Below, one piece after another: positions 43,318 through 63,997 of a stretch of DNA of 64,000 nucleotides. The stretch is from Dictyostelium discoideum. Lineage: Eukaryota. A program made the position numbers and the translations under genes. Below the pieces are notes generated by a model. The model was not told where the DNA came from and did no database searches. It was given only the letters and a program-made list of their open reading frames with translations. Positions within the stretch are counted from its first letter, which is position 1. Each line of letters starts with the position of its first letter. The DNA is taken from the NCBI GenBank assembly GCA_000004695.1, contig CM000152.2, positions 928,001-992,000 on the forward strand. The letters run 5' to 3'.

Positions 43318-44724
43318 ATGGGTAATATTATCGATAAATCAAAAGATAATCATGAACCTGTGAATCAAGATGCATTTGTATTTTGGAGATCTTTAAAAAA
43401 GATTTATGAAGATCCTGATTCTTTAAATACAAGATTCTCTGAATTCATGGATGGCTTTCAAAATGGTGATTTTAATAATGAATCTTCAAATTCCAAATCA
43501 GGTAAGTTTATTATAATACTAATTAAAATAAAATTTTAAAAAAAAAATAAAAAAAAATAAAAAAAATGAATTAATAATAATTTTTTTTTTTTTTTTACTA
43601 TTTATTTATTAATTTTTAAAAAATAATAAATAAATAAATTAATAAATTAATAAATAAATAAATAAATAAATAAATAAATAGGAAAAAGAGAATCAAAAAA
43701 TGAATCATATGTTTTAATGGGAGAAACATCAAAAGGTGATGTAAAGAAACCAGTTAATTCAAGTAAGATATCATTTGTATTTTCAGAAAGTCAAGAAGCA
43801 GAGGCAATTAATAGAAATTTATTACAAACGATCAATTGTAAATTACAATTGATTCCAATAGAATTGAATCATTTCACATTGAATTTAGATAATCATTATA
43901 TAAGTGAGAGGATGTTTCTCTCTATATGTGCAACCTTTTTAGAGAATAATAAAAACTATCATAATCGTCATATGTCGACAACGTTGAAGGAGACACCATT
44001 GAATACAGTGAAAAAGAAGAAAATTCAATCAGAGTTACAAGATTACATTTCAAAATATTATTTCACAATTACAAAGTTGTCTTTGAAAAAGATATTACTC
44101 TCAACGAGATCATTGGAAGGTTTATCACAAGTTTTGAGAACAAATAGATCAATTGTAGAGTTGGATTTGGGTGGCAATGATTTAAGTTGTAATGGTGGTA
44201 TTCCAATTTTAATCGCAGGTCTAAGGGAGAATAAAACCATCACCCGTTTAAATCTATCAGATATTCATGCATATGATGAAGGTGCCTTTATGATCTCTGC
44301 TTATCTATTGTGTAGTAAATCTGTCAAAATCATTGACCTCTCAACAAATCATATCTCTGACAGAGGTTTCGAGTCATTATTGGCCGCTGTCACTAGAAAC
44401 ACTCTCATCACTTCATTATTCCTATCAGATAATAATATAGAATCATCAAAAATTCATTCTCTAAATCATCTTCTTAAAAGAAATACTGCAATTCAATCGG
44501 TTTTTGATCAAATTTTTGATTCAATCCCTTGGAATAGAAAATTTAAAACAAAGGTAGCTTCATTTAAAAGAAATGTTTTAAAAACTAGAACAAATAGTAC
44601 ATTAAATGTTGAACAAATTGAAGATGATAAAACTCCATTATTTAGAGTAAGTAAAATAGTTTATTTTTATTTATCATTTTTATTTTTAATCATATATTTT
44701 TTTCGCCAGTGGAAAACTGGTTGA
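43318..44724 (+). CDS. Leucine-rich-repeat protein of the ribonuclease-inhibitor (RNI-like) type. Exons 43318..43501 and 43682..44724. There may be a small terminal intron at 44647..44709.
   Basis: RNI-type repeats: RSIVELDLGGNDLSCNGGIPILIAGLRENKTITRLNLSD ... KIIDLSTNHISDRGFESLLAAV ... LFLSDNNIESSK. GTAAGT donor at 43502 and aaatag acceptor at 43680-43681 are phase-consistent. Confidence 0.6.
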
Positions 44725-46508: not shown

Positions 46509-47359
46509 ATGAATAAACAGGGTAGTAGCAGTGCACTAACTGCCTCACCAGAAGAGTCTGATGGCTCTAGATTTAAAGTTGGAAAGAGTGAAATGACTGG
46601 TAAAAGACCGACAATGGAGGATAGAATGGTAGCATATGGAAATTTTAGAAATAATCCAAATTCAGAATTATATTGCATTTTCGACGGACATGGAGGACGT
46701 GCTGCTTCAGATTTTGCAGCAGATAATATCTATAAAATATTTGCAGAGTTTTTAGATGCAAACAATACACCAGAAGAATCATTCACAAAAGCATATAAAA
46801 GTATCAATACACAGATTTCACCTTGGCCGTTCATTGGTACCACAGCAGCTTCTGTATATATATGTGAAAATAAAGTTTATATAGCAAATGTAGGTGATTC
46901 AAGAGTAGTTTTAGGTAAAATTATAGGTTCCGATAGTAGTGGTAATAGCGGTGGTGGTGGAGGAGGAAGTGCTGAAGGCGGAGGTGATGAACAACAGCAA
47001 CTACAACAACAACAACAACAACAACCACAACCACAACAACAACAAAAAAAAACTACAGCAGAAAGATTAACATTTGATCACAGACCTGTCGAAGAGTCTG
47101 AACGTTTACGAATTACAGAAGCAGGCGGTACAGTTTTAAATGGACGTGTCAATGGAATGTTGGCAGTATCAAGAGCTTTAGGTGACTCTTTCCTCACTCC
47201 TTATGTCATTCCAGATCCTCATCTATCTTCATTTACAATTTCAAAAGATGATAAATTTTTAATTTTAGCTTGCGATGGTGTTTGGGATTTGGTATGTTTT
47301 TTTTTTTTTCATTAGATTATAATTTTTTCCTTCCAAGAATATTTACTAATAATATATAT

Positions 47360-48179: not shown

Positions 48180-50777
<2,598 letters not shown>

Positions 50778-52320: not shown

Positions 52321-52722
52321 ATGAATTTCATTCATTTATCAAAAAGATTTTATTGTAATAAAATAATTAATAAAAATGTTTTAGAAATTTTAAAAGATAC
52401 AAAAGAAAAACTTTTAAAAAGTAATAATGAATTAATTTCAAATTATTCAGAATTGGAGAGTAAATTATTAGTTTCTCATGTACTAAAAATTAATGATCAT
52501 AATGATCAATATCAATTATTTAATAAAAAAGTACAATCTAGAATTATTTCAAATGAAGAATATAATCAATTACAATCATTTATTGAAAGAAGATTAAATA
52601 ATGAACCAATTAATTATATAATTGGTTATAGATACTTTTGGAAAAATAAATTCTTTTGTAATCATTCAACATTAATACCAAGACCTGATAGTGAAACTGT
52701 AAATTCTATATTAATTATTTTA

Positions 52723-52788
<66 letters not shown>

Positions 52789-53476
52789 TCATTTGTTATT
52801 AATATTTATTTATTTAATAAAGATAATTGAAAAAATTATTGAAGAATCAAAAGAAAAAGAATTAAAAATTAAAAAAATATTAGATTTAGGTACTGGAACA
52901 GGATGTTTATTATTATCAACATTAAATGAATTTAAAGATTCAATTGGAGTTGGTATTGATAAATCAAATGAAGCATTAATAATTGCAAATAAGAATGCTA
53001 TTGAATTATCATTAGATAAAAGAGTTTCACTTTTAAATTTTGATTGGAATAATTATGATAAAAATCAAATTTCAAAATTATTATCATCACCATCATCATC
53101 ATCACCATCGTCATCATCAAATACTAATAATGAAAATAATGAAAAATTTGATTTAGTTATTAGTAATCCACCTTATATTTCAAATGAAGAATTTAAATAT
53201 TTGAATCCAATTGTAACAGAATGGGAACCTAAAACAGCTTTAATAGCTGATGAAAATGGTTTAAAAGATTATAAAAGTATTGCATCATTTTTAAATGAAA
53301 ATAAAGATTCACTCTTATCTGATAATTGTTTAATCGTATTTGAAATTGGTAAAGGTCAAGAAAAAGATATTCAATCAATAATGGAAAATAAATATTCATT
53401 TAAATATATTGGTTATAAAAAAGATTTAAATTCAATAATTAGATGTTTAGTTTTTATGAAAAAAGTAAAAAAATAA
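52321..53476 (+). CDS. HemK/PrmC/MTQ1-like protein N5-glutamine methyltransferase. Two exons: 52321..52698 and 52823..53476.
   Basis: Motifs: FFCNHSTLIPRPDSE, AdoMet motif I ILDLGTGTGCLLL, catalytic VISNPPY, and C-terminal LIVFEIGKGQ. GTAAAT donor at 52699. The intron carries (ATT)n and its acceptor ends in aaag. Confidence 0.75.
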
Positions 53477-53523: not shown

Positions 53524-55342
53524 TTATTGAAATAATACACTCTTTTCTAAAGTATACTTTAATATTTCTTCTTCATTATTTGTTGAAAGAATTTTTTCAA
53601 GTTCTTGTTGTTCTTTTTCTTGTTGTTCTTTTTCTTGTTGTTCTTTTTCTTGTTGTTCTTGTTGTTGTTGTTGTTGAATTTCAAAATCTTCTTTCTTTTC
53701 TAACGATACAATATATTTTTCATCATTTATAATTTCTTTATCATTTTCAGTATTGGTGATGGTGGAGGTGGTTTCTTTGTTAATGAAATTTTTTTCAATA
53801 ATTAATTTACCACCACCTTTAACGACATTAATTGGTAAATTTTTAACATTCATTGCAGTATCGAAAACATCTTTTGATATTGAAATGGTTTGATCGGTAA
53901 CTTTGGCAGCATGTTCACCAAATTTATAATTGACTAAATCAACGGTTGTTCCAGTGGCTTCATCATAGACCATACTAATACCATCACCAATTGCACCAAT
54001 GATTGAACCAATTGATTTAATTGTAGTTTTACCGAAATTTAATGCTTCATTTTTATAAATATTTTCTTCTTCTTTTTCTTCTTCTTCTTTTGATTTTTCA
54101 CATTCACATTCACAATCATCACCATCTGAAGGACGGACTAAATTAACAACACCACCACCAACGGTTGCAACTGCGCTCGATAATGAACCAATGATATAGG
54201 AAGAACCTTGTTTAGCATATGAGGTTACGCTTTTTACACCTTCGACTGTGTTTACAATTATTGGTGAAACCTCAGCAGGTTTTTCATTCTTTTCCATAGT
54301 TGACATTAATTTATAACCACCACCTCTTAAACTTAATGATATTATTGAAGATGCTGATAAAATACAAGCAGCAATAGTTTGTGAACCAGAGTCAACACCA
54401 TTTGTTGCAGATTTAATTGAATTGACAACAAAATCAACATCTTTACTTTTCTCTAAAATTGCTGTATCACCATCATCTTTAATTATTAATTTATCGTTTT
54501 CTTGAGAAATTTTTGTAGTAGTAATATCATCTTCTTCTCCATCACCATTTGCAGTAGTTGTAGTAGTAGTTGTAGTAGTAGTAGTAGTTGTAGTTGATTC
54601 ATTTTCATTTGGTAATGTAATTAAAAAAGAGATCAACTCTAACTTTCTTTCAAGAATATCAATATAAACCAATGGTATATTATGAGGGAACAATAAACCG
54701 AAATAATCTTCATCACTCTTTATAACGTAATGACCTTTTGAGTGAATTAAAATTGGTGTTTGTGAAGTTAAAATAAAAGTTTGATTTGAAATACCATTTA
54801 TACCTTGATTTTCATTATTCTTTAATGAATCTTTGAATTTAATTTGAATGTAATGAATTTTATCATTTGCTTTCTTTAAATAAAATATACCACTTCCAAT
54901 AATTTGTTTTTCAATTACAATTTTATTTGTTGACATCAAATGGCCACTTACACCAACGCCACCAACACCACCGCCAATCTTTGGGGAAGATGTTAATTCT
55001 AGTGCTCTTTTTTGTTCGATATTATCTTCTTTCCATTTATAAATTACACATTCTGATATGGTTAATAATGTTGTGTGTTGTTGATTTTCAGTGTTATTAT
55101 TTACATTTTCATCTTTTGATAAGATTCTTCCTTTAATTTCTATAGCTTTATTTCTTTTCTTTATTAATTCAAATCTTATATTTTCAATTTGACATTTTAT
55201 ATTTTCATTAATTTCTTTATCTAAATTTTAATAAAATAAAATAAAATAAAAATTAATTAATTTGTTTAGGAAAAAAAAAAAGATAAAAAAAAAAAAATTA
55301 ATTATTTTAATTTGTTTAAATAAAAAATTATAATTATAATTG

Positions 55343-56752: not shown

Positions 56753-57497
56753 ATGAGTAAAGTTATTGGCTATATTGATTATGGTGACCCGGATGGAAAT
56801 GAAGAACCGTCAAAACAAAATGGTGAATATATAGATTATTCCAATGAAAATGGCTATAATGCTTACCATTCTGTGAATGGTGGTTATGACAAAGATAACA
56901 ACAACCACCACCACCACAATCAAGAGGAAGATTATGATTATGATAATAATACACACGTTAATTATCTAACAACAAAACATTCACAATTTCAATTAAGTAG
57001 AGGACGTTTATATCAGGGTCATCAAAGTTCTCATATAATTTATCCACATCAAAGTTATAAATTAAGTAATAGGTAATGTATATATATATATATATATATT
57101 TTTTTTACGTTTTTTCATTTTATTTATTTTTTTTTTTAAAATCTCACCATTCACACACACACACTTTTGTTCGTATTTTAATTATTAAGAATTTATTTAT
57201 TAACCAATTGACTTTATTATTATTAGTGGCGAAAGTATGAATAGATCAATTAACCAAAGTAAAGAAGAAGATCATTTAGAGAATAGTTTACATGATGATG
57301 AATATTTATATGGATATGAAGATCATCATGATGATCAAGCTAGTAGTATATCACAAGAATCATCACAAGGTTTAGATGAAACTGATTTTGATAATATAGA
57401 TAAATATTTTGAAAGTAATCAACATTTATTGTTACAAACTCTTCAAAATAATAATAATAATAATAGCAATAGCAATAGTAATAGCAATAGTAATAGC

Positions 57498-57553
<56 letters not shown>

Positions 57554-57822
57554 TACTAAAAATAATATAACTGATGAAAATCAATTAGAAATTCATTTAA
57601 ATGATTTATCAATTGATAGTGATAATAGTAATAATAAAATAAATAAACAATATGTAAATAGTGATAATAGTAATAATAATAATAGTAATAATAGTAATAA
57701 TAATAATATTGGAAGTAATATTAATAGTAATTGTAATATAGAAAATGAAAAAAATAGTAATAATACAGATGATAATAATAATAATAATAATATAGAAAAT
57801 GTAAATAAAATAAATATAGAAG

Positions 57823-57921
<99 letters not shown>

Positions 57922-58537
57922 TTGAAGTAATATCAAATAAACCAATTCAATTATTTTCAGATTATGATCCACCAATATTAACAACATCAACATCAACATC
58001 ACAAAGTAAAATAAAAACACAACAACCATTTTTATTTTTTAGTTCAAATTATTTAAATTCAAGTAGTACAGAATTAGATTTATCAGAACAAGAATTGAAT
58101 GAATTTCCAATATTCGATGAGAAAGAGATTGTTCAAGGTTACAAAATCATTGATTTATCATTTAACAATATTAAATCAATACCATTGGATGCATTTACAA
58201 ATATATCAAATCTTGAACAATTGATTATGTTTAATAATAATTTAAGTGATGTTCCATCATCAATTGAATTTTTAAAACATTTAACCATTTTAGATTTATC
58301 ACATAATAATTTACATGAAATTTGTAGAGAATTAGGTAATCTAAGTTTTTTACGTGAATTATATTTATCAAATAATTCTTTAAAAAAGTTTCCAACAACT
58401 GGTAATCTTTATAATCTTAAAAAATTAATTTTAGATAATAATCAAATTACAACTATACCAATTGAATGTGTTGAACCATTAATACAATTACAAACTTTAG
58501 ATTTATCATTTAATAAAATTGGTACAATAACTTCATC

Positions 58538-58569
<32 letters not shown>

Positions 58570-60653
58570 ATAATAATAATAATAATGGTGGTGGTGGTAG
58601 TATTTATCAAAAAATGAAAAATTTAAAACAATTAAATTTATCACATAATGAATTGCAAGAGATACCATCATCATTAAGACATTTATCAAAGTTACATAGT
58701 TTATCAATTGATTATAATCAAATTAGTGTTTTACCAGATAAGGTTGTGGCGTCATTATCACGTTTAGCTAAATTGACAATTTCAAATAATAAAATTAAAC
58801 AATTACCATTTGCAATTAATAATTTATCATCATTGATTGAATTAAATGCTTCAAATAATGTTATTGAACTTTTACCAGATTCAATTTGTTATCTAAGTAA
58901 TTTAAAGAAATTAAATTTAAATAATAATAATTTAAAAGAGTTACCAAGTAATATTGGTTTCTTAACTAAATTAGTAGATTTACAACTTTACAATAATCAA
59001 ATATCATCATTACCAATTAGTTTCTTAAAATGTCGTTCAATTAGAGAGATTGGTACCGATGGTAATCCATTACCTTCATATTATCATCTTGGTATAAAAG
59101 CAATTCGTTATCATATTAAAAATCCTGATTGTGATTTAGATGATCTTAATTCAATTTCACCAACAATTGATTCATCAACAATTGAACAACAACAACAACC
59201 AATTCAATTATTTGGAGGTGGTAATTATATTGATAGTAGTAATAACAATGGTAATGAATCATTTTGTAATAGTGGTGAATTATCACCATTAACTGATAGT
59301 TTAGAATGTATTGAAATGCCACCACCAATGCAAATATCTGAAAACCTTAGAAAACCATTAAATGTTAATTCACCATCTTATCCATTTCAAAAATTAGATC
59401 CAATTCCACAATCACTTTATTCTTCATCTAATCCAAGAAGTCATACTGAATCTGATATTCAAAAATTAAAAAATAATGATGAAACAATAACAACTACAAA
59501 TTCAAGTATTTCTACTACATCATCACCACCATCATTATTATTTGGAGTATCAATTAATGGGAATGGAATTATATCAACAACAACAACAACAACAACAACA
59601 ACAACCACCACCAATGGTAAAACTTTAAGTAGACAATCATCATTTCAACAAATTCCACAACAATTTAATTTATCAACATCAACAACAAATATTACAAAAT
59701 TACCAAGAATTAAATATACATGGGAAATTGATTTTGACGAAATTCAATTCTTTAATTTAATTGGTCAAGGTGGGTTTAGTAAAGTTTATCATGGTGTTTG
59801 GAGAAGTAAAGATGTTGCAATCAAACAAATAGAATTACAAAATAATAAATCATTGGATGATTTTAGAAGGGAAGTTGGTATTTTAAGTAAATTGAAACCA
59901 CATGAAAATCTATTAGCCTACTATGGCGCTTGTAAACATGCAAACTATTGTTACATCATCACAGAATATTTACCAAGAGGTTCACTACATGATCTATTAC
60001 ATCGTGAACAATTGATGAAATTAGATTTTAAACAAAAAGTTAGTTTTGCAATTTGTGTTGCATTGGGTTGTTATCATCTTTCAACCTATGAACCACCAAT
60101 TTATCATACAGATTTGAAAACAAAGAATTTATTAGTTACAAATGCTTTAAAAATTAAAATTGCTGATTTTGGTTTAGCTTCTTTTGCAAAGAAAAGTTTA
60201 ACAACAATAATCAATAATAATAATAATACTAATAATACTGCTACTAGTTCCACTACTACTTCTTCCGCCAATGGCGCAAATAGTATTTCCAACAACAACA
60301 ACAATGGTACAACTTCAGTCGATCAATCAAGATTAGCTTATGCTTTTTATGCTGCACCAGAAATTTTAAATTCAAAACATTTCTCTGAAAAATCAGATGT
60401 TTTCTCTTTTGGTACTATCTTATGGGAATTAGTTACAAATAAAATACCTTTTGATGGAATGGATCCATATGAAGTTAAAGAATTATTAAAATCTGGCAAA
60501 AGATTGGAAATACCTGAAAATTGTAATGAAGTTTTAAAAAATATAATTCAAGATTGTTGGAATCAACAATCTGAAGATAGACCAACTTTTTTAAGTATTT
60601 ATCATCGTTTGGAAAATTTAATGAAATCAATTACAAAAAAAAGGAGATTTTAA
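56753..60653 (+). CDS. Leucine-rich-repeat protein kinase (TKL-like). Two exons: 56753..57072 and 57227..60653. About 1250 aa.
   Basis: About 14 LRRs (LxxLxLxxNxL, e.g. LDLSFNKIGT, LSHNELQEIPSSL). Kinase domain: LIGQGGFSKVYHGVW, VAIKQI, catalytic loop HTDLKTKNLL (non-RD variant), DFGLA and a C-terminal DRPTF. GTAATG donor at 57073 and ttattag acceptor at 57225-57226, phase 2+1 giving AGT. Confidence 0.75.
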
Positions 60654-60829: not shown

Positions 60830-61330
60830 TTAAATAAACGAATAAAAAAAATCTGGTGAAATAAAATCACCTATATCATGTGCGCCAAATGGAACTCTAT
60901 GCCATAACTTTACAAAAAATAAATGGATGTTATTGGAATGGTAAATGATAAGTTTACCTTTAAAATCTTCAAGATGAGATGGATTTACTTTGAGATTTGT
61001 GATTATTATTGGTAAAATATATGCTTCCTTGTAATGCTTTTCTAAATTAATACAATTTTCATAAATGTTTTTTATAGCTTCTTTACCAAGATAGGAACCA
61101 CATGATGAAAATTTAGTATTAATAACAACCATTATATACTTTTTACCAATATGATCATTTGGCAATTCGAAACAAATTCTTATAGAAGTTTGTATTTCCA
61201 CTAGCTAATAAATTAACCGATTTGGTATTATTCGAAGAAATATATACGGTGGTACCTTCAGTTTTTGCTGAGCAAAATTTTATTGCCTTTTGTTAATCTG
61301 TGATTTCCAATTTATCATTGGATCTAAATA
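60830..61330 (-). pseudogene. Truncated, frameshifted tandem paralog of the 3' exon of the downstream NTPase gene, plus part of its intron.
   Basis: About 80% nucleotide identity to 62043..62600, including the acceptor-side intron sequence ctgaaaatgttaataaaa. It has a 2-nt deletion relative to the functional copy, so the ORF-track 'M' is a GTG. No homolog of the Walker-A exon is found upstream. Confidence 0.5.
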
Positions 61331-61908
61331 CATTGTGAAAATGTTAATAAAACAAGTCATAATTTAATGGACGATTTGGATTATCTTTTAAATTAATAAT
61401 GTGAATTTATTCATTCAATTGGATGTCATCATTATCATATAACTCTATGGATTTTAATAATTATTTTCTTTTGTTTTAATTAATTTATTTCCAATATTGA
61501 TAGTTGGTTTTATTTAAATATAAGAATCAAATTCATAAGGTAAACCATATTAAAAAAATGACCAAATATTAAATAAACAAATTAATTTCTTTCAATACCA
61601 TCAATTAATTCTAATTTTAAAGGTGGTGAATGTTTTTAAATAATAAATGTTTTGTTGTTTCATTCAATTGATAATGCTTCTTCTAATGATGTGACACCAG
61701 TTTGGTTGGAACATGAATAAAAAAGGTTTTTCTAATATTAGAAAATTGATTTAAAGTTTTATTATTTTTCCAATTATTATTATTAATAATATTAAAATAT
61801 TTATAAATGTTATAAAAAACATTATCAATTTCATATAAAAATACAAGTTATATTTAGTATTTTTAAAAAATCATCATCTCCATATTTGTGTTTAAATATA
61901 TGAACAAA

Positions 61909-62042: not shown

Positions 62043-63997
62043 TTATAAAGAAATGTTTTCTAATTCTTTGCAGAGGTTTAAATCTGGTGAAATAAAATCA
62101 CTTGTATCATGTGCACCAAAAGATACTCTATGCCATAACTTTCCAAAAAATAAATGGATGTTCTTGGAATGGTAAATGATAACCTTTCCTTTATTATCTT
62201 TAACATGAGATTGTTTTACTTTGAAATTTGTGATTATTATTGGTAAAATATATGCTTCTTTGTAATGATTTTTTAAATTGACACAATTTTCATAAATGTT
62301 TTTTATAGCTTCTTTACCAAGATAGGTATCACAATTTGAAAATTTAGTATAAATAACAACCATTAAATGCTTTTTACCACCACTTAAGTTTGACAATTCA
62401 AAACAAATTCTTATATCGAAGCTTGTTTTTCCATAACCTAATAAATTAACTGAATTGGTATTATTCGAATAAATATGTTCCTTGTTGTCCTCTGTTTTTG
62501 TTAAGCCAAATCTTATTGCATCTTGTGGATCTGTGATTTCTAATTTATCGTTGGATCTAAATATATTCTGAAAATGTTAATAAAATATTCAATATTGAAA
62601 AAAGTGTAATAAAATATGTTTCTGATATCTTACCTATATAACCATTTGGAGGTATGTTGATATAATATAACATTACGTATCTTTACTTCAATAACTGCTA
62701 ACTCATGACTAATATCATTATCCAATGGAAAAAATTTGACTAATTTTGAAATTGTATTATTGCTACTTTCGACAAAGGTGTTGATTTTGTTGAGGATAAG
62801 AATTGCTATATTTTCTTCAAATGGGGTAGATTTAGTATAATCGATTAAAGGGAATTTTGTTAATTTTTCTAAATGTGATATTTTTAATTTTTGTGCAATT
62901 TTATAAAGACCAAAAATTGGTACAAATATGACATTTCCTTCAACCGCTTCGTCATATTGAAGGAATAAGTGGCCAGTGTACGACCAATATTCTATGGTTT
63001 TGTCGCATACTATGGTGCTCCAACTTACTGGTATCCTGCAAATAGAGAGATATAAAATAGTTTCCCAGAATTTATTATCTACTATTTTAACAGATTGAAC
63101 TTTTTTAACCAACTCTATTCCAAGACCACTGATGAAAGATGGAATGTCTATATCGTCTTTTTCAATGTTTTTCATTAATTCTAAATCCAATAACCACTGA
63201 AGGTATCTTGGAATTACACCAAGATCTCTAATAAATATGATAAATAATTTATCTTCTAATATTGTGGTCGTTGGTTTATTCTGGAGTATTGGTATATTAA
63301 ATCTATGTTTGATTATATCTTTACAAGATTCATAGCTTAATGGTGTTAAAGTAATTGATTTATAAGTCCACTGTGAGAGATGAATTTCGTGTTGTAAAAT
63401 TGTTGTGGTACCAGTTAATATTGGAATTATAAAAACATTACTAAGGGAGGCATCAGATTGGTCGGTTCCTTTACATCTATAAAATCCCAACAATTCTATC
63501 ATTTGCTTTATAAAATGTTGATTTTGTGTACAAGCTATTTCGTGTGCCATGGGAAATTCATCCAAGTGGATAAGAATAGAGAGAGTGTTTTTACCTCCAT
63601 GACCATGGTCACGACTATACAACTTAGAAATATAATGCAAAACATTTTTTACAGTAAACAAATGTTTCTCTTCTGTGTATAAATTTAAATTTGATCCAGC
63701 CAATGATGAACCTAAAACTCCTCTGATGAATAATCTTTTTGCGAGAGCCACTTGACAGGTATCTTCTTTTACTTCTTCAATTGAAATTGCATCACCGCCA
63801 CCGTTGAAGTCAATAAATATATACATTAAATTCTTCATTGTTTCTGCTAATTCTTTATTTCTCTTCCATTGATTACTCTTTAAAAAATTCCAACACTCTC
63901 TGCCAAATCTTGTTTTACCAATACCAGAACCAGTTAAACATTGTAAAAAGTAGTGATTTACTCTTTCTTTATCATTTGCAATAAAATAGTTGAACAT
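62043..63997 (-). CDS. P-loop NTPase of an unassigned family, possibly STAND/AAA-like. Exons 63997(or beyond the window)..62634 and 62556..62043. The 5' end may be truncated by the window edge.
   Basis: Walker A LTGSGIGKTRFG and Walker B-like LSILIHLDEFP. GTAAGA donor at 62633 and TTTAG acceptor at 62558..62557, phase 2+1 giving AGA. The C-terminal exon encodes HLMVVIYTKFSNCDTYLGKEAIKNIYENC.... Confidence 0.55.

Follow-up and report, generated by a model that had tools for sequence, protein, structure and literature searches.

RD (Arg-Asp) kinases clamp the phosphate of the activation loop with the Arg that precedes the catalytic Asp, and the clamp couples phosphorylation to the active conformation. 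How a kinase works without this Arg is the question raised by a gene in a 64,000-nucleotide stretch of the Dictyostelium discoideum genome (GenBank assembly GCA_000004695.1, contig CM000152.2, positions 928,001 to 992,000 of the forward strand; hereafter the window, in whose numbering all positions are given). The gene encodes a protein, most probably LrrkB, in which leucine-rich repeats (LRRs) are followed by a C-terminal kinase domain of the tyrosine kinase-like (TKL) group with the catalytic loop HTD instead of HRD. A sequence-only reading of the window had noticed this change and tied it to non-RD pattern-recognition kinases of the IRAK/Pelle type. The comparisons described here point to a different answer, in which LrrkB would be a catalytically active Ser/Thr kinase whose gating bypasses the RD phosphate pocket and whose output would be set by LRR partners and by packing of the activation segment. 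A rough probability of 0.6 is attached to this reading.

The kinase domain spans 59745..60632 (forward strand, as do all features of this gene) and is matched by the Pfam families PK_Tyr_Ser-Thr (E = 1.4e-59) and Pkinase (E = 3.5e-46), with the match starting at residue 837 of the exon-2 open reading frame (ORF), near nucleotide 59745. The stretch originally flagged, 59700-60653, covers the domain, but it starts a few codons too early and is the 3' end of a longer ORF (57237-60653, 1138 codons) in a gene that extends over 56753-60653 with one intron. The translation of 57237-60653 contains YEPPIYHTDLKTKNLLV, and its catalytic loop is PPIYHTDLKTKNLL. Within the loop motif HTDLKTKN (60105..60128), the codons CAT ACA GAT at 60105-60113 place Thr (ACA, 60108-60110; residue 1068 of the full protein) where an RD kinase has Arg before the catalytic Asp. 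HTDLKTKNLL thus does stand in place of HRDLKxxN, as first read from the letters. The Lys of HTDLK marks the Ser/Thr type, and LrrkB is called a Ser/Thr kinase for this reason.

The same reading had described the other catalytic residues as intact, and each of them can be located: VAIK at 59814-59825 (Lys at 59823-59825), the αC Glu within FRREV at 59862-59876, the catalytic Asp at 60111-60113, the catalytic-loop Asn at 60126-60128, DFG at 60165-60173, and APE at 60354-60362. SDVFSFG, with the subdomain IX Asp, and DRP are also present. At the level of sequence, LrrkB has every residue by which Goldberg et al. 2006 judged kinase competence (K72, D166, and D184; plus G52, E91, N171, and D220). 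The Gly-rich loop reads GQGGFS, with Ser replacing the third glycine. An AlphaFold2 model of the domain has a mean pLDDT (predicted local distance difference test score) of 88 and a pTM (predicted template modelling score) of 0.85, and pLDDT is at least 90 in 243 of 317 residues.

Whether relatives share the HTD change had been proposed as a check, and they do: four other dictyostelid orthologues have it. To collect orthologues, a profile was run exhaustively against 1.84 billion representative proteins, and the matches were then re-scored per kinase domain; the raw top ranks of this search were multi-kinase-domain proteins with summed scores, not orthologues. A word-indexed homologue search returned one dictyostelid orthologue (P0001) and missed three (P0129, P0131, and P0139) that the profile search found. 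The resulting LrrkB orthogroup is a discrete clade, in which members score at least 319 bits and the next domain scores 247, and it forms one clade in a neighbour-joining tree. Its defining features are LRRs of the SHOC2-like kind, capped by GNPLPS-YHLGI-AIR, and, after them, a kinase domain that carries PPxYHxDLKxKN and Y-x-x-[FY]-AAPE. All of these features occur in the window protein, P0129, P0131, and P0139, and the partial sequences P0001, P0002, P0003, P0256, and P0269 show them in the parts that they cover.

HTD is found in the window protein and in orthologues whose kinase domains are 80% (P0129, 1108 residues, from an environmental contig), 72% (P0139, a EukProt dictyostelid), 72% (P0001, Synstelium polycarpum), and 68% (P0131, Acytostelium subglobosum XP_012755102) identical to it. 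A sister branch of metagenomic fragments has HRD in P0002 (48% identical) and HCD in P0003 (49%), P0256 (45%), and P0269 (46%); the contigs encoding P0002 are fragments of ~1.2 kb with no gene context. Because all five dictyostelid members have HTD, the Thr must have been fixed before the sampled dictyostelids split and has been retained since under otherwise strong conservation, and the sister lineage has varied independently (R, C) at the same position. Tyr or Phe precedes the His of the catalytic loop in nine of nine orthogroup members. Over the positions that each covers, none of the nine orthogroup sequences has lost the Lys, the αC Glu, the Asp or Asn of the catalytic loop, or the DFG Asp.

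Kinases without the RD Arg are generally thought to be independent of activation-loop phosphorylation (PMC8463890), and with this Arg missing the loop of LrrkB cannot be switched on through a phosphate clamp. In the mechanism proposed here, retention of every residue needed for phosphotransfer would leave the kinase catalytically competent, and activity would bypass the RD phosphate pocket, control coming instead from the packing of the kinase's own activation segment. The family-specific Tyr preceding the His of the catalytic loop may contribute to this packing together with a second Tyr in the P+1 loop (see below), and partners bound on the LRR domain would also set kinase output.

The activation segment, DFG to APE, occupies 60165..60362 and has 60 residues between the two motifs, versus 23-24 in P0129 and P0139 (24 each) and P0001 and P0131 (23 each); P0002 has 20 residues, and P0003 and P0269 have 19 each. 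The difference lies in an Asn/Thr/Ser-rich low-complexity insert, which the sequence-only reading had placed inside the activation segment and which can now be delimited to about 60195-60320 (60195..60320; ~42 residues of the segment, a net gain of 36 relative to orthologues, GC content 31%). It is missing from P0129, P0139, P0001, and P0131. Its DNA consists of (AAT)10, an ACT-rich 15-mer repeat, and (CAA)5, the same repeat classes that encode the gene's other poly-Asn, poly-Thr, and poly-Gln tracts. The insert is a recent triplet-repeat expansion unique to D. discoideum. As pLDDT drops below 50 exactly there, over kinase-domain residues 179-206, the insert is predicted to be a disordered surface loop on an otherwise canonical kinase. 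It would contribute no functional module to the mechanism, loops of this type being tolerated across the D. discoideum proteome.

A 123-nucleotide in-frame GT...AG interval at 60196-60318 was considered as an unrecognised intron and was rejected on composition, donor, open frame, and the published alignment. The candidate has 32% GC and the donor GTTTAA, versus 16% GC and GTAATG in the real intron of the gene; it is open in frame, and its AAT and CAA arrays resemble the gene's other coding tracts. The Fig. S1 row of PMC1420674 runs through the start of the insert (FAKKSLTTIINNN), which indicates that the curated model is unspliced at 60196.

The P+1 loop at 60336-60362 (forward strand) reads AYAFYAAPE, with Tyr at APE-5, the usual Thr/Ser site of the "GT" motif in Ser/Thr kinases. 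In this column, 317 of 499 sampled related domains have T or S and 34 (7%) have Y, and all nine of nine orthogroup members have Tyr. For substrate handling, this Tyr may carry more weight than the HTD change.

The gene itself lies in a window of 21% G+C that is rich in AAT and CAA triplet tracts. Exon 1 (56753..57072) starts with the ATG at 56753, is 320 nucleotides long with 31% GC, and ends in codon phase 2; the upstream ORF of 107 codons to which it belongs (56753-57076) stops shortly after the GTAATG donor. A 154-nucleotide intron, GTAATG...TTAG (57073..57226), has GT/AG ends and 16% GC, versus 23-31% in the exons, and once it is removed, the frame is restored and the product agrees with the published protein. 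Exon 2 (57227..60653, ending in TAA) codes for a low-complexity N-terminal part, then the LRRs, a linker rich in Ser and Thr, and finally the kinase domain. Joining 56753-57072 to 57227-60653 gives a product of 1248 amino acids.

Residues 1-399 of the spliced model, across the exon junction KLSNSGESMNRS too, match without a difference those that Table S2 of PMC1420674 (Goldberg et al. 2006, the Dictyostelium kinome) prints for DDB0220138. The DDB0220138 row in Fig. S1 of the same paper, HLSTYEP..PIYHTDLKTKNLLVT..KIADFGLASFAKKSLTTIINNN, likewise agrees with the window sequence, the start of the insert included. The kinase gene of the window can accordingly be identified by its sequence as D. 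discoideum DDB0220138; the identification was drawn from this supplement because the exact protein is missing from the protein collection that was searched. Table S2 classes DDB0220138 as TKL / TKL-Unique and "kd", predicts it to be active ("a"), and gives its motifs as VAIK / HTDLKTKN / DFG. Bodinier et al. 2019 (PMC7003747) gave the name LrrkB to DDB_G0278509, a protein with 13 LRRs, one kinase domain, and "no other functional domains". Neither gene nor motif is new: public kinome tables have contained the gene, with its domain architecture and HTDLKTKN, since 2006, and the protein has gone by the name LrrkB since 2019. Neither PMC7003747 nor PMC1420674 remarks on the missing RD Arg, on how far the HTD loop is conserved, or on the insert in the activation segment, and a literature search on non-RD kinases in Dictyostelium found nothing relevant. 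What is added here is the conservation of HTD in Dictyostelia, the P+1 Tyr signature, and the triplet-repeat insert found in D. discoideum only.

That the kinase is carried by an LRR protein, as first noticed, agrees with Pfam, which finds LRR_8 (E = 3.7e-32), LRR_4, LRR_14, PK_Tyr_Ser-Thr, and Pkinase in the 1138-residue exon-2 product; a scan of this product detected LRR and kinase families alone, and neither Roc nor COR. The LRR domain (58068..59123) comprises ~12-13 repeats of ~23 residues each (LxxLxLxxNxLxxLP...), ten of which fit a strict regular expression, followed by a conserved C-terminal cap, GNPLPSYYHLGIKAIRYHIKN, that is also present in P0129, P0131, P0139, and P0002. The closest solved relatives of the LRR region are LRRD1 (1.2e-69) and then SHOC2 (~4e-54), both cytosolic. 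No signal peptide was found in the 1248-residue protein, whose N-terminus, MSKVIGYIDYGDPDGNEE, is not hydrophobic, and no membrane span was found by Kyte-Doolittle analysis with a 19-residue window, the maximum mean being 1.19, within the kinase core. The linker between LRRs and kinase is hydrophilic and Ser/Thr/Asn-rich. A plant-type receptor kinase is excluded because signal peptide and transmembrane segment are absent and the LRRs match cytosolic LRR proteins best; LrrkB is a soluble cytosolic protein.

Low-complexity tracts also occur N-terminal to the kinase. The LRR domain is interrupted between two repeats at 58537-58586 (forward strand) by a poly-Thr/Asn/Gly insert, TSSTTTTTTTTTTNNNNNNGGGGS, encoded by (CAA)11 and (AAT)6; it is specific to D. 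discoideum and is lacking in the closest orthologue, P0129. Further upstream, a 473-nucleotide AAT-rich triplet array at 57447-57919 (forward strand; ~77 hexamer units) codes for long poly-Asn and Asn/Ser tracts in the N-terminal part of the protein.

Sequence and structure comparisons agree on where the kinase belongs. PF07714 outscores PF00069 (201.9 versus 158.2 bits), as expected of a TKL kinase, and the best solved relatives by sequence are CTR1 (3ppz, 3.6e-46; 161 bits), ZAK/MLT (133 bits), TAK1 (126 bits), and MLK1, followed by Src/Abl-type tyrosine kinases. With the predicted fold, the Foldseek order among the matches listed is CTR1 (3ppz, 1e-25), Lyn, and TNNI3K. Outside the orthologues, the highest scores in a large protein database, ~165 bits, go to plant kinases of the Raf type that resemble STY46 and to a TKL of an oomycete, versus 90-100 bits for RLK/Pelle proteins (PERKs and one RLK-Pelle-DLSV protein). 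Neither the 50 Foldseek matches listed nor the top 60 PDB matches by sequence include an IRAK or RLK structure. Judged from these scores, the LrrkB kinase is probably nearest to CTR1/MLK-type (Raf-like) TKLs and lies outside IRAK/Pelle/RLK.

The Raf-like/MLK TKL MAP kinase kinase kinases (Arabidopsis CTR1 and STY46; ZAK/MLT, TAK1, and TNNI3K) are thus the closest to LrrkB in both sequence and predicted fold, with 32-37% identity, a level at which orthology is not claimed. They keep the RD Arg and the common GT(P/x)xWMAPE form of the P+1 loop and carry other accessory domains, whereas LrrkB has HTD and AYAFYAAPE. The Roco/LRRK proteins (D. discoideum Roco1-11 and human LRRK1/2) share with LrrkB cytosolic LRRs of the same type and a TKL kinase, but they insert a Roc GTPase and then COR, neither of which Pfam finds in LrrkB, and the predicted-active Roco entries among the TKL rows of Table S2 all have HRD.

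LrrkA (formerly DrkD), a cytosolic LRR kinase of D. discoideum, is similar in plan: its LRRs are followed by a C-terminal TKL kinase, and Roc/COR is absent, as are signal peptide and membrane span (PMC7003747). It has 7 LRRs in 1288 residues, compared with ~13 in 1248 for LrrkB. LrrkA autophosphorylates on serine, and its knockout affects killing, phagocytosis, and motility (PMC7003747), whereas no such effects are reported for LrrkB. The two kinases fall into different families: LrrkA belongs to the Dicty4/DRK subfamily, all four members of which have HRD in Table S2, and LrrkB is TKL-Unique with HTD. The DrkD entry is inferred to be DDB0214883 (HRDLKTDN), by elimination among these four, as it has no signal peptide. 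LrrkA and LrrkB are therefore architectural analogues, not close kinase paralogues.

How unusual is a non-RD loop in this neighbourhood? Of 229 kinase domains with a complete catalytic set from the nearest relatives without LRRs, 43 (about one in five) lack the HRD Arg, and the LRR-bearing matches in the sample used to assess non-RD enrichment are almost solely the LrrkB orthogroup itself. CLK and SRPK kinases, which are active without activation-loop phosphorylation, have the HTD loop of LrrkB, but they belong to the unrelated CMGC group and have no LRRs, a case of one-residue convergence. ClkA and Sky1/SRPK1 are not known for immune recognition. Both are listed for D. discoideum with HTD (HTDLKPEN) and are predicted to be active (PMC1420674). 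The TKL rows of Table S2 contain at least six other predicted-active non-RD TKLs of D. discoideum: Shk2 (HLD), Shk4 (HND), Gdt8 (HGD), DDB0220436 (HFD), DDB0229957 (HLD), and DDB0230133 (HLD). Because these six TKLs, the 43 non-LRR domains, and ClkA and Sky1 are non-RD, and the predicted-active LRR-bearing Roco kinases and the DRK kinases are all HRD, a non-RD loop appears to be neither rare among neighbouring TKLs nor tied to LRRs.

These comparisons bear directly on the proposal that LRRs joined to a non-RD loop mark an amoebal pattern-recognition or innate-immune kinase. Such a protein would be a functional analogue of the plant non-RD LRR receptor kinases or of animal IRAK/Pelle/RIP kinases, detecting a microbial signal with its LRRs and passing it on through the kinase. 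The non-RD immune kinases (FLS2, EFR, XA21, IRAK1, and Pelle) do resemble LrrkB in lacking the HRD Arg, and the plant members carry LRRs on the same polypeptide. The LRRs of the plant immune receptors are extracellular, with a membrane span before the kinase, whereas LrrkB is soluble, has neither signal peptide nor membrane span, and has LRRs nearest to cytosolic proteins such as SHOC2. Cys or Gly is usual at the RD position in the non-RD IRAK/Pelle/RLK family. EFR has Cys there (PMC8463890), and LrrkB has Thr. The conservation of HTD in Dictyostelia can be counted for the proposal, as can LrrkA, which with a like architecture connects folate (bacterial) sensing to intraphagosomal killing (PMC7003747). 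Yet the kinase of LrrkA, the sole relative with an immunity-type phenotype, is RD and sits in the all-HRD Dicty4/DRK family; the LrrkB kinase is nearest to CTR1, ZAK, and TAK1, not to IRAK/RLK; and the frequent non-RD loops of neighbouring TKLs occur without LRRs. Dictyostelium is, moreover, reported to have no RAF, STKR, IRAK, or RIPK orthologues (PMC1420674). The kinship to IRAK/Pelle pattern-recognition kinases suggested by the sequence-only reading gives way before the higher Raf-like/MLK-type scores, the reported absence of IRAK and RIPK, and the soluble nature of the protein, and the immune proposal as a whole is very doubtful. Its more specific form, in which Dictyostelia would have kept LrrkB as a dedicated cytosolic sensor or relay in bacterial recognition or killing, beside or downstream of LrrkA, as an independent and convergent instance of "LRR + non-RD = innate immunity", is highly improbable; if true, it would put the "LRR + non-RD kinase" rule outside plants and animals and in another kinase family.

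Several points weigh against LrrkB being an active kinase independent of the RD pocket. The equation of DDB0220138 with DDB_G0278509 (LrrkB) is most probably right, but it is drawn from like architecture plus a database entry length presumed to be 1248 residues. An exact look-up in a collection of 15 billion proteins found neither the 1248-residue product nor the exon-2 ORF, and a full-text literature search for LrrkB / DDB_G0278509 found the protein named in PMC7003747 alone, with no reports of activity, phosphorylation, or phenotype. The P+1 Thr-to-Tyr and Gly-rich-loop Gly-to-Ser changes could reduce or alter activity. Non-RD kinases have low activity in vitro, and one of them, EFR, is controlled through phosphorylation of its activation loop and signals in a catalysis-independent way (PMC8463890); a non-RD loop is for these reasons no proof of constitutive activity. 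The main rival to an active kinase is thus a weak kinase or pseudokinase whose chief role, as has been suggested for EFR, would be that of a scaffold or allosteric partner, with the LRRs and the kinase surface assembling a complex and phosphotransfer being dispensable. The co-occurrence of HTD, the APE-5 Tyr seen in 7% of sampled domains, and the GxGxxS Gly-rich loop is in keeping with such a role. Against it stand the catalytic Lys, Glu, Asp, Asn, and DFG Asp kept throughout the nine orthogroup sequences, and Table S2, which scores DDB0220138 as "kd / active". Strict conservation of residues that serve catalysis alone favours retained activity, and the scaffold is unlikely. The remaining explanation, that the feature is an artefact (a sequencing error in the Thr codon, a decaying copy, or an Asn/Thr stretch that is an unrecognised intron), can point to the single base change between AGA and ACA and to the 123-nucleotide GT...AG interval that matches the insert almost exactly. 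The sequence-only reading had itself named a single-codon error, or close relatives with HRD beside an inactive pseudokinase copy, as outcomes that would undo it; instead, HTD recurs in four independently sequenced orthologues, and its presence in all five dictyostelid members rules out both an error of sequencing and a copy in decay. The 3.7 kb of coding sequence are uninterrupted, kinase identity to orthologues is 68-80%, and GC content, donor, open frame, triplet arrays, and the Fig. S1 row all speak for a coding insert, so that an artefact is almost certainly not the answer.

The surroundings of the gene were also surveyed. Directly downstream lies a partial tandem duplication (60830-61352 and 62043-62585, reverse strand; spacing ~1231 bp) with blocks of 300 nucleotides at 90% identity and 172 nucleotides at 83%. 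Its two short ORFs, of 123 and 117 amino acids, share 78% identity across 100 residues, and Pfam matches neither. Adjoining it is an ORF of 455 amino acids (62630-63997, reverse strand) with a P-loop-like motif, GSGIGKT, and no Pfam match. The arrangement suggests that a 3' exon has been duplicated in a gene family that is uncharacterised. On the other side, ORFs at 53524-54939 (reverse strand) and at 52321-52830, 48692-49777, 46509-47315, and 43717-44724 (all forward) match Pfam Senescence (PF06911), PrmC_N, DUF2921 (transmembrane E3 ligase type), PP2C phosphatase, and, weakly, LRR_6. These neighbours are of ordinary housekeeping type and do not suggest a functional cluster with the kinase.

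As it stands, the finding matters little, since the gene and its motif were already tabulated. LrrkB does allow a cheap test of the link between non-RD kinases and immunity in amoebae, even though the evidence gathered here gives no pointer to immunity. Its wider use is as a reasonable, genetically tractable case for asking what lets a TKL kinase function when the RD clamp is missing.

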